Shown one piece after another: positions 2,587 through 9,083 of a stretch of 10,854 bases of DNA. Each line of letters opens with the position of its first letter. The stretch's first letter is position 1. Source of the stretch: a virus; the UHGV virus genome UHGV-0113369, one strand, 5' to 3'. The notes under the pieces are model-generated. The model was given only the letters and a program-made list of their open reading frames with translations. It had not been told where the DNA came from and did no database searches. Position numbers and translations under genes: made by a program.

Positions 2587-3236
2587 GCCGCCATCTCCCT
2601 GACCAGTTTTTCTGCCTGCTGGCGAACCTGCGCCAGAAAGGCCTCACCACATGCCTCAAGTTCATCGCGCCCGATGTAGCTGATTGCCGGTCCCTTCCAG
2701 GTCTTGTCGAAAACAGCAATAGCACCAGCGAAGAAAGCGCCTGTCGGCACCTGCTTCTCATCCTTCGGGATAAACCAGGCAGGCAGTTCAAAACCAATAC
2801 GCCCGCGAATAAAAGCAATATGATCTGCATCTTCCGGCCACCACACTTCGCTGGTGGCAGCTTTGATCAGGAAAACATAGCGCCCGCCTTTATCACGCAT
2901 GGCACTGGCATGCTTCATGATGTAACGCATGCCGGTGATGTATTGCCCCTCATGCTGACTGGCGCGGCTGTATGGGGGATTACCAAAGGCAGCACCTTTA
3001 AGCTCCGCAAGGCGTTCTGACCAGTCATGCGCCAGCGCGTTGTCTTCCGCCGTGTAATACGCAGCACATTTGGCGTTATCACCGTCAGTGAACAGATCCA
3101 GAACAAACGGGCCAAACAGGGTGTTAATTCCCCAGAAAATGTTGTCCGGCGTGCGCCACTGATCGCCCACTTCCTTCAGTTCATGGGCTGGTTTGTTCCG
3201 CAGTTCCGCCAGCGCCTGGCAATATTTATTACTCAT
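2583..3236 (-). CDS. Phage N6-adenine DNA methyltransferase (Dam-like, NPPY motif)
   Basis: GNPPYSR catalytic motif and overall resemblance to phage Dam-type methyltransferases. Start chosen as the ATG at 3236-3234, which overlaps the upstream TAA (TAATG). An in-frame upstream start at 3269 is possible (ORF track 2583..3269). Confidence 0.8.
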   Translation of the reverse strand: MSNKYCQALAELRNKPAHELKEVGDQWRTPDNIFWGINTLFGPFVLDLFTDGDNAKCAAYYTAEDNALAHDWSERLAELKGAAFGNPPYSRASQHEGQYITGMRYIMKHASAMRDKGGRYVFLIKAATSEVWWPEDADHIAFIRGRIGFELPAWFIPKDEKQVPTGAFFAGAIAVFDKTWKGPAISYIGRDELEACGEAFLAQVRQQAEKLVREMAA

Positions 3237-3724
3237 TAAGCCCCCACGTAATTCCCTGAGAGATACCACTCTTCACCTGATGCAGCCCGCTTACTGCTTT
3301 TCCGTAAACACCGTTCACGACGCGCCAGAAAATTGTTTCGTTCTGGCTGGGAGTGGCTTTCACGGAATGCCGCCATCCACACCGTTGCAGCACGACGGTA
3401 TAAGCCCCTCGACTCCAGTTCTTCAGCCTGGCGGGTCAGGCACAAAATCACCCGGGGGTCGTTAGTGCCGACATAGAACTTGCGCACAGGTCTGGTTTCA
3501 CGAACTGGTTGTGGTTCCGGCTCCTGCGCTCTCTCAGTCAGGCGCGAGAAATGTCTGCGTGTATCTCCTTCACAACGGTGAGCCACACGCCCACTCTGAC
3601 GTAACTTGCTTGCTGACTGCAGAACGCGCTGCCGTGAGTAACCTGCAAAAGCATCCGCAATGTCTCCGGAAGTACACCCCGGATGGGCTTCAATGAATTT
3701 CTGAACTTCATTCAAAAGACTCAT
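3236..3724 (-). CDS. Small regulator: N-terminal winged-helix domain fused to ANR/PerC-like C-terminal motif
   Basis: 162 aa from ATG 3724 (SD-like AGGGGG 5-6 nt upstream); a GTG at 3730 overlapping the rep stop is an alternative. C-terminal RRAATVWMAAFRESHSQPERNNFLARRERC fits the W..A...ER...R.ERC pattern I associate with ANR/PerC-family regulators. Assignment is from memory and tentative. Confidence 0.4.
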   Translation of the reverse strand: MSLLNEVQKFIEAHPGCTSGDIADAFAGYSRQRVLQSASKLRQSGRVAHRCEGDTRRHFSRLTERAQEPEPQPVRETRPVRKFYVGTNDPRVILCLTRQAEELESRGLYRRAATVWMAAFRESHSQPERNNFLARRERCLRKSSKRAASGEEWYLSGNYVGA

Positions 3725-3726
3725 GA

Positions 3727-4668
3727 TCACCCCCTGAATCCTGCCGGGATCTGGCTGTAGTCCACGTTGTCGTAACTGGATTTGAAGTACGGATCTTCAC
3801 GTTTTTCTGTGTATGTGCTGACGGACGGCGATAAGCGCAGGGAAAGCTCATCCCATTTTTCCCGCAGCTTCGACGGGCTGAGCACGTTACGGCACCAGAA
3901 CGGATCGCGGCTGACGCGGCTGTACATCTCGCAGATTTGTTTGTGAGTACGACCATCCTGCACACACATCAGGCGAATTTCGTTTGCCCAGGCTGTCCAG
4001 TTCGGTTCTTTGGGACGAACCACCTCGCCGTCACATTCGGCAGCCTGCTCGTACAGGGCGATGATTTTTTTCCAGAGCCACTGTGCGCAGGTCAAATCAT
4101 CCTGCGTTCCCCACTGGCGCTTTTTAGGGCTGAATACAACCGCATCAGGATGGCGAGTTAAAAAATCCTGTTCAGCCGTCTGCGTGTCCGGTTGCGAAGC
4201 GTCCGGACGAGAAGGTTTTTTATCTGACGGTTCATGTTTTGATTTTACTGACGGATCCCCGCCAGATTCTGACGGGTGAAAACCCGCTTTTTTGCCAGAT
4301 TTCGACGCATCAAATTTTGACGGGTCAGATTTTGATGCGTCAGATTTTGACGGGTCAGAATCTGACAGTTGAGAAAATGCCGCTGCCTGAAGCTTCGCAA
4401 CGTTAAGCTGATAAACATTCGACGCATTGCGGTTACCCTGGCGACGCGCCTTACGCGTTAACCAGCCTTCTGCTTCCAGCCGTGCGATAGCCGTTCTGAC
4501 GGTACTCATCCCCGCGCCAATCTGACGGGCAATGGTTTCAATTGATGGCCAGCACACACCTTCGTCATTACTGAAATCAGCCAGGCGGGCCATAATTGCC
4601 ACGCTGGATAATTTCATGCCTGACGCAGCGCAACCATCCCATACATAGCCGGTTAATTTAGTGCTCAT
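3727..4668 (-). CDS. Phage replication initiation protein (N-terminal HTH, lambda O-like role) with internal pentapeptide repeats
   Basis: 313-aa ORF. N-terminal 90 aa look like a winged-helix/HTH replication-initiator domain. Central low-complexity repeat DPSKS/DASKS/DPSKF/DASKS is encoded by a 15-bp tandem DNA repeat. RBS GAGG 6 nt upstream of ATG 4668. Confidence 0.7.
   Translation of the reverse strand: MSTKLTGYVWDGCAASGMKLSSVAIMARLADFSNDEGVCWPSIETIARQIGAGMSTVRTAIARLEAEGWLTRKARRQGNRNASNVYQLNVAKLQAAAFSQLSDSDPSKSDASKSDPSKFDASKSGKKAGFHPSESGGDPSVKSKHEPSDKKPSRPDASQPDTQTAEQDFLTRHPDAVVFSPKKRQWGTQDDLTCAQWLWKKIIALYEQAAECDGEVVRPKEPNWTAWANEIRLMCVQDGRTHKQICEMYSRVSRDPFWCRNVLSPSKLREKWDELSLRLSPSVSTYTEKREDPYFKSSYDNVDYSQIPAGFRG
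4220..4368. repeat. Iteron array (candidate origin of replication) inside the initiator gene
   Basis: Four to five contiguous 15-bp units YCAGATTTTGACGGG at 4295-4368, another copy at 4262-4276, and degenerate copies near 4222-4254 (TATCTGACGG, TTTTACTGACGG). This parallels lambda ori iterons lying within gene O. Confidence 0.6.
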
Positions 4669-4677
4669 GACCGACCT

Positions 4678-5016
4678 CTATTTCCCTGAATTTACGACGA
4701 AACTGTTCGAGCGGGCTGAAGCATTCATGCTCATAGCCTTCGCGGAGGTAGATAACCCGTTGTGTTTCCGGTTCCCAACGAATGACTCTGACGGGCACTC
4801 CGTAGTGATCTTTGAACCAGCGGTTAACTTGTCGCAAAGGACTGTCTCCTTCTGCCGGTTGAAATCACCCACAGCCCACTCTGCAAAGCTGTGGGTTACA
4901 ATTTCCCTGTCACCTGGTACATTTACTGCATAGCAATACTCCACCTTCGCTTTTCCACCCGGTACAGGAAGCGCAATCAGTTGCGAGCGACGGTAGTGTG
5001 TTGTTAAACTGTTCAT
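4678..5016 (-). CDS. Hypothetical protein (uncertain coding status)
   Basis: 112-aa ORF whose ATG (5016-5014) overlaps the CII-like stop (ATGA). No recognisable motif. It contains an 8-bp GC-rich hairpin (4868-4895) and is overlapped by an antisense plus-strand ORF. Confidence 0.3.
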
Positions 5017-5597
5017 GCGTTAGTTTCTCCACAACCAGAAGCAATCGACGCCACGACGCCCGGAGCTGCACACTCGCGGGCGTTACTCTTTTCCGGCGCA
5101 CAAAAAACACGAAATAACAGTGTTAAATGCTCCTGCCACTTCGCCATTACTTGGTAGCTGTTCTCTTCGATTTGCTCACGCTCAGCTTGGTCAATAACTC
5201 CATCAGCAGTTGCCTTGCGTAAGTACTGGGAATGCTTGCCAATCCATTCTATTGACTCCATCAGCCGCTGATTAATGTCACCATTGTCAATGTCATCAAT
5301 GACCACCAGCGGCACAAACACCCCATTACTACGACGGGCTATTGCATCCGTTACATGCCTGGTACCACTGGCATCCTGTAAAACCATGGCCCACTCAAGT
5401 GGAAAAATTTGATCCCCACCGCTACGCAGTCTGTTATGCAATTGATCTTTCGCTGGGGTGATATCATCAGATTTATACAAACCAAGAATTTCCGCTGCTT
5501 CCTCATAGCCATGAGGTAAATCAGCAATCGTTCTTCGTATTGCTGCCACCAGCCATGCTGGTTGCTTATCAACTTTCCATTCAGGTTCTTTACCCAC
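5013..5597 (-). CDS. CII-like lysogeny regulator (CP76/YdaT-type), GTG start
   Basis: 194-aa ORF immediately downstream of the cro-like gene, the position of lambda cII. GTG start at 5597 with GAGG 7 nt upstream. Family assignment is by recollection of Phage_CP76-type proteins and is tentative. Confidence 0.45.
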
Positions 5598-5633
5598 GTT
5601 TAAGCCTCATATCTGTGGTTTCTGTAAATCGAT

Positions 5634-5834
5634 TTATCCATTAGATTTTTCATAAAGCTCAGGTTTAAATGGCAACCGTCCGCAAGTTCTATATGCAGCC
5701 TCTGCTGCACGTCCTTTTGGAATTAACTGGCCAGGACGGTTTCGCCACTGATAAACGGCTTCAGTTGTTATGCCGAAAAAAGCAGCAACTTTCTCAATGC
5801 TGCCGAAGTAGCTTTCGATATCGTCAGTCGTCAT
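5634..5834 (-). CDS. cro: Cro-like repressor
   Basis: 66-aa basic protein divergent from the CI gene. Strong RBS GGAGG 4 nt before ATG 5834. Some resemblance to lambda Cro in the central/C-terminal region (AVYQW...GRAAEAAYRTCG). Confidence 0.6.
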   Translation of the reverse strand: MTTDDIESYFGSIEKVAAFFGITTEAVYQWRNRPGQLIPKGRAAEAAYRTCGRLPFKPELYEKSNG

Positions 5835-5931
5835 ATGCCCTCCAAACTAAGTTTTATTAGATGTTAATTATCAATCTATCTTAGGTCAATAAAAACTAAG
5901 ATTACTTAGTAATTAAAGAAATGGTGCTCCT
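5835..5931. promoter_or_regulatory. Immunity-region OR: divergent pR/pRM promoters with AACTAAG-type operator palindromes
   Basis: AT-rich 97-bp spacer between divergent cro-like and cI genes. 11-bp palindrome AAACTAAGTTT at 5844-5854 and 16-bp palindrome ACTAAGATTACTTAGT at 5895-5910. Candidate pR on the minus strand: -35 TTGACC (5889-5884), 17-bp spacer, -10 TAACAT (5866-5861). Confidence 0.55.
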
Positions 5932-6558
5932 ATGGAAACGGTTGGTCAGCGTATAAAAGCTCTGAGAAGAGTTACCAGAACGTCCCAGAAAGAATTGGGT
6001 AAATTTTGTGGAGTAAGTGACGTTGCTGTGGGGTACTGGGAGAAAGACATCAATGTCCCTGGTGGGGAAGCACTTTCAAAATTAGCGAAGTTCTTCAATA
6101 CGTCAATAGATTACATTCTTTATGGTGCGGAGTTTGAAGGCAAACTCGTCACAAACATGCGCAGAGTTCCTGTAATCTCGTGGGTTCAGGCTGGGCAGTT
6201 TACTGAGTGCAGGACAGCAGAAGTGTTTAGTGAAGTAGACAAGTGGGTAGATACATCATTAAAGATTGGTGATAACTCATTTGCATTGGAGGTTAAAGGC
6301 GACTCCATGACTAACCCTAACGGCCTCCCAACAATACCAGAAGGCGCAACAGTGATTGTAGATCCTGATGCAGAGCCCCGGCATGGAAAAATAGTCATCG
6401 CTAGACTTGATGGAACAAACGAAGCCACAGTAAAAAAATTAGTTATCGATGGCCCTCAAAAGTTTTTAGTGCCATTAAATCCCCGGTACCCCAACATCCC
6501 GATCAATGGTAATTGCCTCATCATTGGTGTAGTCAAAGGAGTTCAATACGAACTCTAG
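5932..6558 (+). CDS. cI: CI-type prophage repressor (HTH_XRE N-terminal domain + S24 LexA-like autopeptidase domain)
   Basis: 208-aa ORF. N-terminal HTH (QKELGKFCGVSDVAVGYWEKD). C-terminal S24 peptidase motifs (EVKGDSMTNP with catalytic Ser; KKL with catalytic Lys). Divergent from the cro-like gene. Weak or absent SD, consistent with a near-leaderless pRM transcript as in lambda. Confidence 0.9.
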   Translation: METVGQRIKALRRVTRTSQKELGKFCGVSDVAVGYWEKDINVPGGEALSKLAKFFNTSIDYILYGAEFEGKLVTNMRRVPVISWVQAGQFTECRTAEVFSEVDKWVDTSLKIGDNSFALEVKGDSMTNPNGLPTIPEGATVIVDPDAEPRHGKIVIARLDGTNEATVKKLVIDGPQKFLVPLNPRYPNIPINGNCLIIGVVKGVQYEL

Positions 6559-6576
6559 CCCCCCTTTTCTCTAACC

Positions 6577-6613
6577 AAAACACCGAACTAAGAAAAGTTT
6601 GGTGTTTTCTCTT
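6577..6613 (+). terminator. Putative intrinsic terminator downstream of cI
   Basis: Stem AAAACACCGAAC (6577-6588) pairs with GTTTGGTGTTTT (6597-6608) including one G-U; 8-nt loop; followed by TTTTCTCTT. Stem is A/U-rich so strength is uncertain; it may instead be part of the OL operator region. Confidence 0.4.
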
Positions 6614-6640
6614 GCCATTAAAACTAAGTTAAGTTAGATT
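6612..6640 (+). promoter_or_regulatory. Candidate pL-like promoter overlapping an OL-like operator
   Basis: -35 TTGCCA (6612-6617), 17-bp spacer, -10 TAGATT (6635-6640). The spacer and -10 contain AAACTAAGTTAAGTTAG, the same AACTAAG motif seen in the cI-cro intergenic operators. Confidence 0.35.
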
Positions 6641-6742
6641 TTATATCAAAGATAACGAACAGGTAGGACGCCCACGAAGTAGCCGCCGGTGGCGTATGAA
6701 TGACCGGATGATTCGTTAAATACTATGTGTAAGAGAGCGCAA

Positions 6743-6946
6743 ATGAACCGTTATTTCACATGCTCGTTTTGTGGCGCAAACGAGCTGCAGGCAAAAAAAA
6801 TCATCGCCAAAGGCGGAAAAGATGAAGTTGCTATCTGCTCTGAGTGCGTAGTCTTGTGTGTCGGGGCATTAATCGATATCAGCACAACTATTCAGTTCAC
6901 ACCAAATGAGAATGCGCCTTTAGATGCGCGGAAATCTGGAGGTTAA
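6743..6946 (+). CDS. Free-standing ClpX-type C4 zinc-finger (ClpX N-terminal ZBD-like) small protein
   Basis: 67 aa from ATG 6743 (RBS AAGAGAG 5 nt upstream). CSFCG...KIIAKGG...ICSECVVLC aligns by eye with the E. coli ClpX N-terminal zinc-binding domain ([30 protein letters not shown]). No AAA+ ATPase domain follows. Confidence 0.6.
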   Translation: MNRYFTCSFCGANELQAKKIIAKGGKDEVAICSECVVLCVGALIDISTTIQFTPNENAPLDARKSGG

Positions 6947-6954
6947 AGAACAAA

Positions 6955-7230
6955 ATGAAAGTCCAGATTTTAAACAATAGTGGTGAAGTCGTTTGGTCAT
7001 ACGACATAGCCGCTACTGTAGATCAGAGCGGCGATAGCTGGACCAATGGGAAACATCAGATTATGGCTGGAGTTGTGTTCTCTTTACGCCGTGCTTTAGA
7101 ACAGGCTGAAGTCTTTCCATCAGACCCTGAATGGAAATGGCCTTTTTCTATTTGTCCAAATTCGGAGAGTACATTTCAGAAAATTGGTCAGAAAGTCGCA
7201 CTCGAAGAGCATCAGCCAACTGTTTCCTGA
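6955..7230 (+). CDS. Hypothetical protein (91 aa)
   Basis: ORF with GGAGG 11 nt upstream of ATG 6955. No recognisable motif. The last ~27 codons overlap the convergent 81-aa gene, so the true 3' end is uncertain. Confidence 0.4.
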   Translation: MKVQILNNSGEVVWSYDIAATVDQSGDSWTNGKHQIMAGVVFSLRRALEQAEVFPSDPEWKWPFSICPNSESTFQKIGQKVALEEHQPTVS

Positions 7231-7393
7231 TTTTTTCAGGTAACTCGTCGGCATCGCAGAAACAACAACGCTCGATCATGTTGAAAGCTGATTCGTAGAA
7301 CTGTTTTTGCTGAGTGTCGCTGAGACAGGAAAAGAGCGACGTTACGATGATTTTATTAATTGCATTATCAAGTTCTTTTTCATCAAAAGTCAT
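7148..7393 (-). CDS. Hypothetical protein (81 aa), convergent to neighbours
   Basis: ORF with good RBS (AAAAGGAAAA, 7-8 nt spacing) before ATG 7393. Acidic/helical-looking sequence with a CCFC motif. Opposite orientation to the surrounding plus-strand genes. Confidence 0.5.
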   Translation of the reverse strand: MTFDEKELDNAINKIIVTSLFSCLSDTQQKQFYESAFNMIERCCFCDADELPEKIRKQLADALRVRLSDQFSEMYSPNLDK

Positions 7394-7646
7394 TTGATTT
7401 TCCTTTTATGTATACGGGCTTAAAAGGATACCACCGAGCCTGAAGTGGTGAAAAGACAGGCACATAACAGCTAAGTATTTTCAACCAGAGAGAATCCTTA
7501 GCGTTGTGGTGAATGCGGCTCAGCGCACGCGGGTTAAGGTTGAGGCTGACAGTCGACCTTCTGTGGATACCCACCCGCCTGGTGTGCAACCTTCGCCAGG
7601 CACCGGGAGGCACCCGGCACCACAACTTTATGCTGTGTGTAGTCTT

Positions 7647-7693
7647 GGCGGTACCAGCTTGTACCCTTGCTTCCGGCTGGTACCGTCCTTTTT
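7647..7693 (+). terminator. Intrinsic terminator-like hairpin in the leader upstream of the yfdP-like gene
   Basis: Perfect 10-bp stem CGGTACCAGC (7649-7658) / GCTGGTACCG (7676-7685), extendable by G-C and G-U pairs, loop ~15 nt, followed 3 nt later by TTTTT (7689-7693). Confidence 0.5.
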
Positions 7694-7782
7694 ACAAAAC
7701 AGAGAAGAGCATCACCGGACGACGGGCTCATAACCCAATCCATCCGGGCGGCAGTCACCGCAGGTGTTCTTCTCTGTTTTGT
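7694..7782. repeat. 20-bp imperfect inverted repeat pair flanking 49 bp
   Basis: ACAAAACAGAGAAGAGCATC (7694-7713) is the reverse complement of GGTGTTCTTCTCTGTTTTGT (7763-7782) apart from two G-T positions. The enclosed segment is GC-rich. Confidence 0.55.
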
Positions 7783-7830
7783 GGAGAAACTAACCGACCT
7801 TGCAGGGTCGATATGATGAGGAGCAGCAAA

Positions 7831-8193
7831 ATGGCTAGCGAACGCAGTACTGATGTGCAGGCATTTATCGGGGAGCTGGACGGCGGCGTATTTGAAACCA
7901 AAATCGGCGCAGTTCTCAGTGAAGTCGCTTCCGGTGTGATGAACACGAAAACCAAAGGTAAGGTCTCGCTCAACCTGGAAATCGAACCGTTTGATGAGAA
8001 CCGAGTGAAAATCAAACACAAACTCTCATATGTTCGCCCGACTAACCGCGGGAAAATTTCCGAAGAAGACACCACCGAAACGCCGATGTATGTCAATCGC
8101 GGTGGTCGCCTGACTATTCTGCAGGAAGACCAGGGACAGTTACTGACTCTTGCCGGTGAACCTGACGGAAAACTCCGCGCAGCAGGTCGTTAA
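7831..8193 (+). CDS. yfdP: YfdP-like prophage protein (120 aa)
   Basis: RBS AGGAG 7 nt upstream of ATG 7831. Length (120 aa) and position immediately upstream of a yfdQ-like gene match my recollection of CPS-53 yfdP. Upstream in-frame ATGs at 7813/7816 lack an RBS. Confidence 0.5.
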   Translation: MASERSTDVQAFIGELDGGVFETKIGAVLSEVASGVMNTKTKGKVSLNLEIEPFDENRVKIKHKLSYVRPTNRGKISEEDTTETPMYVNRGGRLTILQEDQGQLLTLAGEPDGKLRAAGR

Positions 8194-8258: not shown

Positions 8259-9083
8259 ATGTCTCAGAACTTAGACGCAACCGCAATTAATCAAATCCAT
8301 GCCCTTATTTCTGCTCAGGGTGTTAATGAAATTATCAGTAAGATTGGTGCCGATGCTGTGGCATTGCCTGAGAATTTCCGCATTCATGATCTGGAAAAAT
8401 TTAATTTAAATCGCTTCCGTTTCCGTGGTGCGCTTTCCACTGCCAGCATCGATGACTTTACCCGTTATTCTAAAGATCTTGCAGATGAAGGCACCCGCTG
8501 CTTTATCGATGCTGATAATATGCGTGCCGTCAGTGTGCTTAACCTGGGTACTATTGATGAACCAGGTCACGCAGATAACACCGCCACACTCAAACTGAAA
8601 AAGACAGCACCGTTCTCTGCTCTGTTGTCTGTTAACGGCGAGCGTAACTCCCAGAAGTCACTGGCAGAATGGATTGAAGACTGGGCCGACTATCTTGTGG
8701 GCTTTGATGCTAATGGTGACGCTATTCAGGCAACAAAAGCGGCTGCGGCGGTCCGTAAAATCACGATTGAAGCAAACCAGACCGCTGATTTTGAAGATAA
8801 TGACTTCAGCGGCAAACGCTCCCTGATGGAGTCTGTCGAAGCGAAGACCAAAGACATTATGCCAGTGGCATTTGAATTTAAATGCATTCCGTTTGAAGGT
8901 CTGAAAGAACGTCCGTTTAAATTACGCCTCAGCATTATCACTGGCGATCGTCCGGTACTGGTTCTGCGCATTATTCAGCTGGAGGCGGTGCAGGAAGAAA
9001 TGGCTAACGAATTTCGTGATCTGCTTGTTGAGAAATTCAAGGACAGCAAAGTAGAAACCTTTATTGGTACTTTCACCGCCTGA
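8259..9083 (+). CDS. yfdQ: YfdQ-like DUF2303 family protein (274 aa)
   Basis: 274-aa ORF with RBS GTGAGGA upstream. Length and gene order (before an HD-domain yfdR-like gene) match the CPS-53 yfdQ/yfdR arrangement as I recall it. Confidence 0.65.

Follow-up and report, generated by a model that had tools for sequence, protein, structure and literature searches.

A heptamer, AACTAAG, recurs on both sides of a cI repressor gene in a 10,854-nucleotide stretch of viral DNA (UHGV-0113369; "the window" below is this whole stretch), which raises the question of whether the repeats are the operators of that repressor and, if so, what kind of immunity region they belong to. A first-pass annotation, made from the letters alone, had proposed that the copies define OR and OL in the manner of lambda, that pL lies directly after cI without rex-like genes in between, and that cI is read from a leaderless pRM transcript. 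We find that the sites are, with a probability of roughly 0.85 as judged from sequence comparison, the operators of a P22-immC-like lambdoid prophage immunity region of the mEp460 type; both their identity as operators and the position of pL directly after cI are well supported by this comparison.

Results

Genes of the immunity region

The cI gene (5932-6558, + strand) encodes a repressor of 208 aa with an N-terminal HTH_3 and a C-terminal Peptidase_S24 domain (Pfam). The protein is 47% identical to P22 C2 over its full length, and its PDB matches include the N-terminal domain of P22 C2 (E = 6e-10) and the C-terminal domain of lambda cI (E = 4e-28). Divergent from it lies a cro-like gene of 66 aa (5634-5834, - strand), the first gene of the rightward early operon, whose product matches Pfam P22_Cro (PF14549; E = 4.4e-11, 42.8 bits against a cutoff of 30.2) and whose Shine-Dalgarno (SD) sequence, GGAGGG (complement of 5838-5843), is strong at -9.8 kcal/mol. 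The immunity region is 99.5% identical at the DNA level to that of phage mEp460. No operator study was found among the titles listed for papers that mention mEp460, in which the phage appears to be named as a prophage-prediction hit.

Enrichment of the repeat beside cI

AACTAAG occurs exactly four times in the window, at 5845-5851, 5894-5900, 6586-6592 and 6622-6628, all on the + strand and within 1-2 nt of the four ranges given by the first-pass annotation. Counted over the whole window the heptamer is enriched, with 0.84 copies expected and four or more reached in 1 of 200 shuffles, and all four copies fall within the 263 bp of non-coding DNA beside cI (5835-5931 and 6559-6724). When these two regions were simulated 20,000 times with a first-order Markov model of their local composition, three copies arose twice and four copies never. 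The palindromes reported around the heptamer are likewise real: the one at 5896-5909, CTAAGATTACTTAG, is perfect, and those at 5847-5860 and 6624-6637 have one mismatch each. AACTAAG forms the left half of an 18-bp pseudo-palindrome, AACTAAG-N4-CTTAGTT, whose left half-sites are the better conserved.

Placement of the sites on the promoters

An operator PWM that was trained on orthologous loci only, and that was used to score every 18-mer of the window, returned OL1, OR3, OR1, OL2 and OR2, in this order, as the top five. The three OR sites are laid out along pR, which a promoter scan places on the - strand at 5861-5889 (-35 TTGACC at 5889-5884, 17-nt spacer, -10 TAACAT at 5866-5861) with a predicted start at about 5854. 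OR1 (5845-5862, AACTAAGTTTTATTAGAT; PWM score 20.9, rank 3) covers this start together with the final 2 bp of the -10, a placement relative to pR that is the same as that of P22 OR1, and is kept in all orthologs. OR3 (5894-5911, AACTAAGATTACTTAGTA; 21.1, rank 2) lies beside cI, contains a perfect 16-bp palindrome (5895-5910) and holds the hexamer TAAGAT (5897-5902). OR2 (5869-5886, TATCAATCTATCTTAGGT) is degenerate, and its score of 4.0, although rank 5 in the window, is by itself not significant against background. It is found in the pR spacer with a 3-bp overlap with the -35, exactly 24 bp from OR1 and 25 bp from OR3 (23 and 25 bp in P22). Two Rahnella orthologs (L012 and L025) have a clearer palindrome, CTAATCTTTATTAG, at the same position, and CTTAG of OR2 is changed to CTTTG in 94%-identical E. 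coli variants.

On the other side of cI, the scan predicts pL at 6612-6640 on the + strand (-35 TTGCCA at 6612-6617, 17-nt spacer, -10 TAGATT at 6635-6640), starting at about 6647-6648; the orthologs have TTGACC or TTGACA together with TAGATT. OL1 (6622-6639, AACTAAGTTAAGTTAGAT; 24.6, rank 1) sits in the spacer, and its right half-site runs into the -10, which agrees with the earlier remark that the 6622 copy overlaps a candidate -35/-10 pair. It is invariant in the E. coli variants and kept in the orthologs. The remaining copy belongs to a probable OL2 (6586-6603, AACTAAGAAAAGTTTGGT; 12.9, rank 4), with a perfect left and a poor right half-site. As had been proposed, pL would lie directly 3' of cI with no rex-like genes between them, an arrangement that the P22 record also has, with OL and pL after c2; the first genes after pL encode a ClpX-zinc-finger-like protein and then a small ORF without a Pfam match. 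The site list of the first-pass annotation stands for its four copies, but it overlooked the degenerate OR2 and the fact that the 6586 copy is embedded in a hairpin.

Conservation of the sites and co-variation with the recognition helix

The comparison set consisted of 20 orthologous loci and the window, with cI 63-90% identical and hosts from Enterobacter to Proteus. Over these loci the operator sites are kept while the surrounding DNA has diverged. The flanks of cI, 8.9 kb in all, hold 58 matches to CTAAG-N4-CTTAG with at most one mismatch, and 92 kb elsewhere hold 6; wherever an orthologous locus has both OR1 and OR3, they are 49 bp apart; and the pR hexamers, GGTCAA and TAATAT/TAACAT, are kept as well. 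OR3 is the top-conserved non-coding element of all 20 loci, and the 21-33 nt that separate it from the ATG are fully divergent. The Rouxiella orthologs have the OR sites and lack the downstream OL; not every member of the family therefore has an OL. This comparison lends strong support to the proposal that the AACTAAG-bearing sites bracket cI as OR and OL.

The operators also change with the recognition helix of the repressor, which reads VSDVAVGYWEKD in the window as against VSNVAISQWERS in P22. Repressors with the GY helix (the window and its orthologs) go with the half-site CTAAG. Photorhabdus and Xenorhabdus homologs, which share the SQ helix VSHVAISQWE with P22, retain the P22-type half-site TTAAG in operators of the form TTAAG-N4-CTTAA, and Proteus and Morganella homologs with the TG helix VNRVTVTGWE have GTAGG-N4-CCTAC, their half-site being GTAGG or GTAAG. 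Each class of repressor is without the motifs of the other classes in its own repressor flanks. Within this C2-family series the helix changes track operator positions 2-3, and the positions of the sites stay fixed. These data bear on a quite different reading, in which AACTAAG would be no repressor site but an AT-rich repeat that arose by chance, an element that goes with promoters, or a recombination linker where modules meet. The regions are indeed AT-rich and the copies all point in one orientation. However, the single orientation follows from the heptamers being left halves of pseudo-palindromes, simulations of local composition never yielded four copies, and the motif shifts with the recognition helix over three classes and e14 without a shift in position, all of which makes a role unrelated to the repressor very improbable.

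The copy in the cI terminator

The hairpin around the 6586 copy (6577-6608, + strand) has a 13-bp stem and a U-rich tail, folds at -15.6 kcal/mol (z = -4.4, with none of 200 shuffles equally stable) and is probably the intrinsic terminator of the cI transcript; e14 has a terminator at the equivalent place. The copy spans both stem and loop of this hairpin, the right half-site reads GTTTG and agrees with CTTAG at only 3 of 5 positions, and a Kosakonia ortholog (L008) has CTAAT at the position of the copy. The heptamer could be nothing but a part of the terminator, whose hairpin alone could account for the conservation of OL2, and OL would then have OL1 as its one functional site. We regard this as rather unlikely, given that the OL2 score exceeds the 95th percentile of the null maximum (9.0) and that its distance to OL1, 36 bp, matches the 35 bp between OL2 and OL1 in P22. 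In addition, CTAAG in the hairpin loop is kept across genera despite diverged flanking sequence, and Yersinia, Providencia and Proteus orthologs have full, clear palindromes at the OL2 position, 33-34 bp from OL1, with the terminator separate from them. OL2 is a probable second operator of pL.

Start of the cI transcript

The cI ATG has no convincing SD, as had been noted before. GGUG, 5 nt upstream of the ATG, gives the strongest pairing to the 16S 3' end, at -2.8 kcal/mol versus -9.8 for cro; the corresponding values are -1.4 for P22 c2 and -4.3 for e14 ymfK. GGTG is kept in several enteric orthologs, where it may be a weak SD or a discriminator. Two positions for pRM have to be weighed. The promoter may be colinear with that of P22, with its -10, TAAGAT, inside OR3 (5897-5902), a start at about 5908, a leader of about 24 nt in which GGUG (5923-5926) would be a weak SD, and OR3 acting in autorepression. 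The P22 record has the same -10, TAAGAT, in the left half of OR3 and a start 6 nt downstream; no ortholog departs from TAAGAT in OR3, at a place where OR1 and OL1 have CTAAGTT; a leader of variable length and sequence would fit the unconserved stretch between OR3 and the ATG; and SD-like elements are present 5-9 nt before the ATG in many orthologs. However, the conservation of TAAGAT is inseparable from that of the operator, the SD-like elements might belong to an establishment transcript of the pRE type, and the design would be awkward, with a weak promoter placed under the strongest operator and activated via the weakest, OR2. We give this arrangement just short of an even chance.

Alternatively, the cI mRNA may be leaderless or nearly so, like the repressor mRNAs of lambda cI, e14 ymfK, racR and dicA and as the first-pass annotation had it, with a -10 AATGGT (5920-5925), a start no more than about 3 nt from the ATG, and the repressor at 5894-5911, centred at -29.5, as activator. 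In lambda pRM the -10 is followed by 6 nt and then by the ATG of the leaderless cI, and this -10-N6-ATG geometry would be that of the window and also of e14 (TTTAAT-TTCGTT-ATG). The ymfK mRNA of e14 was mapped as leaderless by dRNA-seq (PMC4681348). The weak SD is comparable to those of P22 c2 and e14 ymfK, nATGGT-N6-ATG is also present in four orthologs (L008, L012, L024 and L025) and TAGGAT-N6-ATG in one from Yersinia (L017), and the site at 5894-5911 is within 1 bp of the placement of P22 OR2 relative to the annotated P22 pRM start. On the other hand, AATGGT agrees with TATAAT at 3 of 6 positions and is not accompanied by a -35, the motif is missing in about half of the orthologous lineages, and several of these have SD-like sequences (e.g. 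AGGAG in L013, -7.4 kcal/mol). The distance from the counterpart of this site to the ATG furthermore ranges from 28.5 to 41.5 bp among the orthologs and is therefore a poor fit to a face-dependent activator. We give a leaderless transcript odds somewhat below even.

A structured RNA in the pL leader

Adjoining the operator region, and separate from the operator assignment, the pL leader contains a structured RNA (6654-6717, + strand) made of an outer helix P1 (6654-6659/6712-6717) that encloses an inner hairpin P2 (6686-6690/6703-6707), with an invariant strand, AGGACGCCCACGAAGTAGC. Over 105 distinct variants 94.6% of cells are paired, against 64.7% in shuffled controls, and pairing in slid controls did not exceed 45%. 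Of the 11 pairs, 10 show compensatory changes on both sides. The fold of the single sequence is no better than that of shuffles (z = -0.16), and the structure is visible only through covariation. Rfam gave no match in 5400-7300 (E up to 1) or in the whole window (gathering thresholds), no tRNA was found, and a literature search for the invariant 18-mer was without result. The RNA is shared by many heteroimmune enterobacterial prophages (e14, SfV, SfII, ST64B, ZF40, mEp237 and that of the window), and in many immunity types it is located at a near-constant distance from a pL-kind promoter. A boxA follows the element in 11 of 106 related loci. Neither a consistent terminator nor a conserved first gene was found after the element, the downstream genes being mosaic.

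Several known elements were considered and rejected as its identity. HK022 putL is an RNA of about 65-70 nt immediately after pL in a lambdoid phage without N-type antitermination there (PMC9378689), and it resembles the leader RNA in size and in its place directly downstream of pL. However, putL taken from the genome is dissimilar beyond short strings and folds differently, into two side-by-side stem-loops rather than an outer helix around an inner hairpin; the covariance model has no copy in HK022 or P22, and there is no second copy after pR. The lambda sRNA PreS/LPR1 maps between ea10 and ral at tL2a. As for nut-type antitermination at pL, no boxA within 2 mismatches is present anywhere in the window.

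Discussion

At the level of sequence, our analysis establishes that the sites exist and are enriched, where they stand relative to the conserved promoter hexamers, that they are conserved, and that they co-vary with the recognition helix of the repressor. From these we infer that the repressor actually binds there, along with an affinity order, cooperativity and the candidate positions of pRM. In such a switch, cI dimers, and presumably Cro too, would bind the 18-bp AACTAAG-N4-CTTAGTT operators. Repressor at OR1 (pR start and -10), OR2 (spacer and -35) and OR3 (beside cI) would turn pR off, and repressor at OL1 and OL2 would turn pL off and silence the leftward early operon, until RecA-stimulated self-cleavage of the S24 domain leads to derepression. 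The best-conserved and strongest site is OR3, whereas OR3 of lambda is weak, and the regulatory logic may therefore differ from that of the textbook switch.

With a layout almost exactly that of P22 and a different DNA code, this immunity type had not been described before but is of an ordinary kind, a heteroimmune member of the P22-type switches. What the work offers is a testable operator map and the half-site code AACTAAG-N4-CTTAGTT for an immunity type that includes phage mEp460 and is present in about 500 of 5,426 complete E. coli genomes. The helix and half-site series should be useful for annotating prophage immunity, for predicting heteroimmunity and as a system for specificity swaps. 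The understanding of such switches is left unchanged, and the leader RNA is the more open question. While the switch itself is conventional, the pL transcript would begin with an undescribed RNA of about 64 nt in the place of N and nut, which might conceivably, though we think it on balance doubtful, be a new cis-acting leader element, for example one that antiterminates without any factor, like HK022 put, or one on which a factor of the host or the phage docks. As a lesser possibility, the strongest operator of this lineage, at 5894-5911, might activate a leaderless pRM and so turn the usual logic of a weak OR3 around.

The first-pass annotation had taken lambda as its model. Its operators on both sides of cI hold, but the right model is P22, with a C2 repressor 47% identical to cI and 18-bp AAG-N4-CTT operators, and not lambda. 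The window and lambda are alike in the divergent cI and cro, a tripartite OR, an OL that controls pL beyond cI, a self-cleaving S24 C-terminal domain and a weak or absent SD of cI. In contrast, the lambda operators are 17 bp long, are unrelated in sequence to the sites described here and, measured from pR, lie about 16 bp farther upstream; lambda has rexA and rexB between cI and OL, where the window has none; and the N-terminal domain of the window cI is not lambda-like.

The window has the hallmarks of the P22 type, namely a C2-family repressor, a Cro of the P22_Cro family, three 18-bp OR sites and OL/pL directly 3' of the repressor gene. It shares with P22 immC 18-bp pseudo-palindromes with an AAG-N4-CTT core and four central bases, and a pR that is colinear with the annotated P22 pR (TTGACT-16-GATAAT), its -35 overlapping OR2 by 3 bp and its -10 overlapping OR1 by 2 bp. 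The geometry of pL is likewise that of the annotated P22 pL, and in both OL1 extends from the spacer into the -10 (P22 OL1 is AATTAAGAAGTCTTAAAT followed by T). The immunity specificity is not that of P22, as the half-site is AACTAAG rather than ATTTAAG, and the region is therefore that of a heteroimmune relative. In the P22 operator, positions 2-7 and 12-17 are contacted by the repressor, and a change of T3 to C abolishes specific binding (PMC4267663); C at position 3 of the window half-site fits a heteroimmune relative. Further differences concern OR3, which is the best site rather than the weakest and stands 20 bp farther from the ATG than its P22 counterpart, and OR2, which is degenerate here, unlike in P22. 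Two OL sites were found in the window, a third not being evident, whereas P22 has three, and OL2 is fused with the terminator, unlike in P22. The window also lacks nutL boxA/boxB and gene 24 (N), and its leader has a different conserved RNA.

The e14 prophage of E. coli K-12 (ymfL, ymfT/croE, ymfK/cohE, ymfJ) shares its gene order with the window and places terminator, pL and operator behind the repressor gene in the same way; the conserved RNA is found in its pL leader too. However, its repressor N-terminal domain and its Cro are unrelated to those of the window, and its operators read ATGTAC-N7-GTACAT.

Predicted operators on both sides of cI

The 10,854-base window contains the heptamer AACTAAG four times and no more (starts at 5845, 5894, 6586 and 6622, all on the + strand), against 0.84 expected, and every copy lies either in the cro-cI intergenic region (97 bp) or in the 166 bp 3' of cI. 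Simulation of these two AT-rich flanks under a first-order Markov model never gave four copies (0/20,000). The first-pass annotation had placed the heptamer on both sides of cI, partly within palindromes, and its enrichment over the window is borne out, with coordinates shifted by at most 1-2 nt. The palindrome CTAAG-N4-CTTAG is perfect at 5896-5909, has one mismatch at 5847-5860 and 6624-6637, and two at 6588-6601.

The region encodes a repressor of 208 aa (5932-6558, +), in which HTH_3 and Peptidase_S24 domains are recognised, and, by domain match, a P22_Cro-family protein (5634-5834, -) and a CII/CP76-like (YmfL-family) protein (5013-5597, -). The repressor is 47% identical to P22 C2 over its full length, its N-terminal domain resembling that of C2 (E = 6e-10) and its C-terminal domain that of lambda cI (E = 4e-28). 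Phage mEp460 has an immunity region 99.5% identical to this one, and among 5,426 complete E. coli genomes, 510-518 contain the region at no less than 80% query coverage.

The P22 GenBank record puts OR1-3 between c2 and cro and starts pRM 4 nt upstream of the c2 ATG; directly 3' of c2 it has OL1-3 and pL, then nutL and gene 24. With c2 read on the top strand, P22 OR1 (ATTAAAGAACACTTAAAT), OR2 (ACTAAAGGAATCTTTAGT) and OR3 (ATTTAAGATGACTTAACT) align with AACTAAGTTTTATTAGAT (5845-5862), TATCAATCTATCTTAGGT (5869-5886) and AACTAAGATTACTTAGTA (5894-5911) in the window, at centre spacings of 23 and 25 bp in P22 and 24 and 25 bp here. Predicted pR (TTGACC-17-TAACAT, 5889-5861, - strand; P22 TTGACT-16-GATAAT) overlaps OR2 with its -35 by 3 bp and OR1 with its -10 by 2 bp, exactly as in P22. 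On the other side, P22 OL1 (AATTAAGAAGTCTTAAAT, between TTGACC and TAAATT) corresponds to AACTAAGTTAAGTTAGAT (6622-6639, between TTGCCA and TAGATT), the right half-site supplying part of the pL -10 in both, and OL2 (6586-6603) lies 36 bp from OL1, compared with 35 bp in P22. Given this colinearity, the four heptamers would be the left half-sites of predicted OR1, OR3, OL2 and OL1; OR2 lacks the heptamer, being too degenerate.

A half-site weight matrix trained on orthologous loci only, with the window excluded, ranked the five P22-predicted sites as the top five of 10,837 positions (OL1, 24.6; OR3, 21.1; OR1, 20.9; OL2, 12.9; OR2, 4.0). The next-best score was 0.9, and the maximum score of a simulated window had a 95th percentile of 9.0. 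Phylogenetic footprinting covered the window and 20 loci, one genome per species, with repressors 63-90% identical, from Enterobacter, Kosakonia, Kluyvera, Serratia, Rahnella, Yersinia, Rouxiella, Providencia and Proteus. The 8.9 kb flanking the repressor genes held 58 copies of the motif (up to one mismatch) and the remaining 92 kb held 6, and OR1 and OR3 were 49 bp apart in every locus with both sites.

The motif also varies with the recognition helix. Helix VSDVAVGYWEKD in the window and its orthologs goes with CTAAG-N4-CTTAG, the P22-like helix VSHVAISQWEKE of Photorhabdus/Xenorhabdus with TTAAG-N4-CTTAA (24 in 2.1 kb of flanks, 0 in 18.5 kb elsewhere), and VNRVTVTGWEKG of Proteus/Morganella with GTAGG-N4-CCTAC (16 in 1.7 kb of flanks). 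No class's motif was enriched in the repressor flanks of another among these three homolog classes. P22 repressor contacts operator positions 2-7 and 12-17, leaving the central four bases uncontacted, and T3 to C abolishes its specific binding (PMC4267663). The window half-site differs from that of P22 at positions 2 and 3, with C at position 3.

The OL side and pL

The 6586 copy lies inside a 13-bp hairpin (6577-6608; -15.6 kcal/mol, z = -4.4) with a U-rich tract after it, in all likelihood the cI terminator; prophage e14 has a terminator in the same place. By position, this copy is the OL2 counterpart. Yersinia, Providencia and Proteus orthologs carry a full palindrome 33-34 bp upstream of OL1 and a separate terminator. 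In the E. coli-type lineage this putative OL2 has merged with the terminator, and its left half-site is the only good one. We consider it fairly likely that the 6586 copy is a functional OL2.

Other copies were seen nearby. In E. coli variants of this immunity region that are 94% identical (042, ET791 and Ec-050; L003, L004 and L005), the AACCAAA of window 6573-6579 reads AACTAAG, a fifth copy lying 13 bp 5' of the one in OL2; this may be chance or a third half-site of OL. A third operator-like palindrome (CCAAGACAACTTAG, CTAACAAAACTTAG) is present in Providencia and Proteus loci (L019, L020/L021) about 22 bp beyond OL1, 3' of the pL -10, where the window has none; the number of OL sites thus varies within the family.

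That pL directly follows cI, with the downstream heptamer overlapping its -35/-10 pair, had also been proposed, and is supported both by P22 homology and by a conserved leader element downstream of it. A strong sigma-70 promoter precedes this element in about 90 distinct upstream contexts; the promoter's -10 mostly ends 13-16 nt upstream of the element, and the palindromes in the promoter spacer differ by immunity type.

Start of the cI transcript

The cI ATG had been described as having no convincing Shine-Dalgarno sequence. Indeed, the candidate GGUG (5923-5926) is weak, at -2.8 kcal/mol compared with -9.8 for cro; P22 c2 (-1.4) and e14 ymfK (-4.3 kcal/mol) have comparable values. Two models fit the sequence. 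The transcript may be leaderless, with a predicted -10 (AATGGT, 5920-5925) followed by 6 nt and the ATG. Lambda cI has this geometry, and nATGGT-N6-ATG recurs in several enteric orthologs. The e14 geometry is also identical, and ymfK mRNA was mapped there as leaderless (PMC4681348). Alternatively, pRM may be colinear with that of P22, whose -10, TAAGAT, lies within OR3 and is invariant in window-type OR3 (5897-5902). Since OR3 and the ATG are 20 bp further apart than they are in P22, transcription would then start near 5908 with a leader of about 24 nt. Several orthologs have real SD-like sequences (e.g. AGGAG in the Yersinia locus L013), and the OR3-to-ATG distance varies by more than one helical turn, as a leader of free length would allow. 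The OR3-to-ATG sequence itself diverges completely among orthologs.

A structured RNA in the pL leader

Just 3' of the predicted pL start lies a conserved structured RNA of about 64 nt (6654-6717, +), single-copy in the window. Conserved copies are found within other immunity contexts in more than 1,400 further E. coli genomes, in e14, and in phages including SfV, SfII, SfIV, ST64B, ZF40 and mEp237, unannotated in all of them. In heteroimmune enterobacterial prophages and phages, where it is widespread, the element always comes right after a promoter under repressor control. P1, an outer helix (6654-6659 with 6712-6717), and P2, an inner hairpin (6686-6690 with 6703-6707), both with abundant compensatory changes, enclose the invariant strand AGGACGCCCACGAAGTAGC. 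Across 105 distinct variants, 94.6% of P1/P2 cells are paired (64.7% shuffled, at most 45% in slid controls), 10 of the 11 pairs change on both sides, and the covariation score is 0.72 versus 0.18. It had no Rfam match, and comparison rejected both HK022 putL and lambda PreS as its identity. No consistent terminator or boxA was found after it, the downstream genes being mosaic.

The predicted pL transcript of the window starts ATCA...CAGGTAGGACGCC (6647-6675), related to ATCAGCAGGACGC, with which the pL leaders of P22 (L085, 1386-1360, -) and lambda (L208, about 204-180, -) begin; because of this likeness, the leader element may be an expanded relative of their 5' leader. We know of no function assigned to this string. 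In all three, the 5' end of the pL transcript can fold into a small hairpin whose loop is AGGAC.

Neighbouring genes

The product of the first gene after pL (6725-6946, +) is 73 aa long and contains a ClpX C4 zinc-finger domain (E = 1.2e-10). Orthologs begin at the second ATG (6743; MNRYFTCSFCG...), so the true start may lie 6 codons downstream of the annotated one; related loci encode 121-aa versions. Further along, 7394-7830 holds no convincing gene, and the 226-aa ORF 7513-8193 has no Pfam match. Its C-terminal part is probably the counterpart of yfdP, the gene that immediately precedes yfdQ (8259-9083 in the window) in related E. coli loci. The early-right operon encodes a protein with a PerC-like transcriptional activator domain (3236-3730, -; E = 7.4e-09) and a 108-aa protein (2260-2586, -; Pfam LexA_DNA_bind, E = 2.9e-19) that is a LexA DNA-binding domain alone, without the S24 cleavage domain, and could modulate SOS or LexA-box genes.

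Comparison with known switches

The operator and pL reading of the cI flanks is well supported by these comparisons. The e14 layout is the same as that of the window, although the N-terminal domain of its repressor and its Cro are unrelated, and its operators, located in OR and within the pL spacer (L002, 1659-1728 and 2465-2483), are ATGTAC-N7-GTACAT. HK022 has similar ATGTAC...GTACAT-type repeats between cI and putL (L207, about 860-820, - strand), which suggests an operator type common to both. The locus is a conventional P22-type immunity switch, with a heteroimmune specificity for which we found no earlier description.
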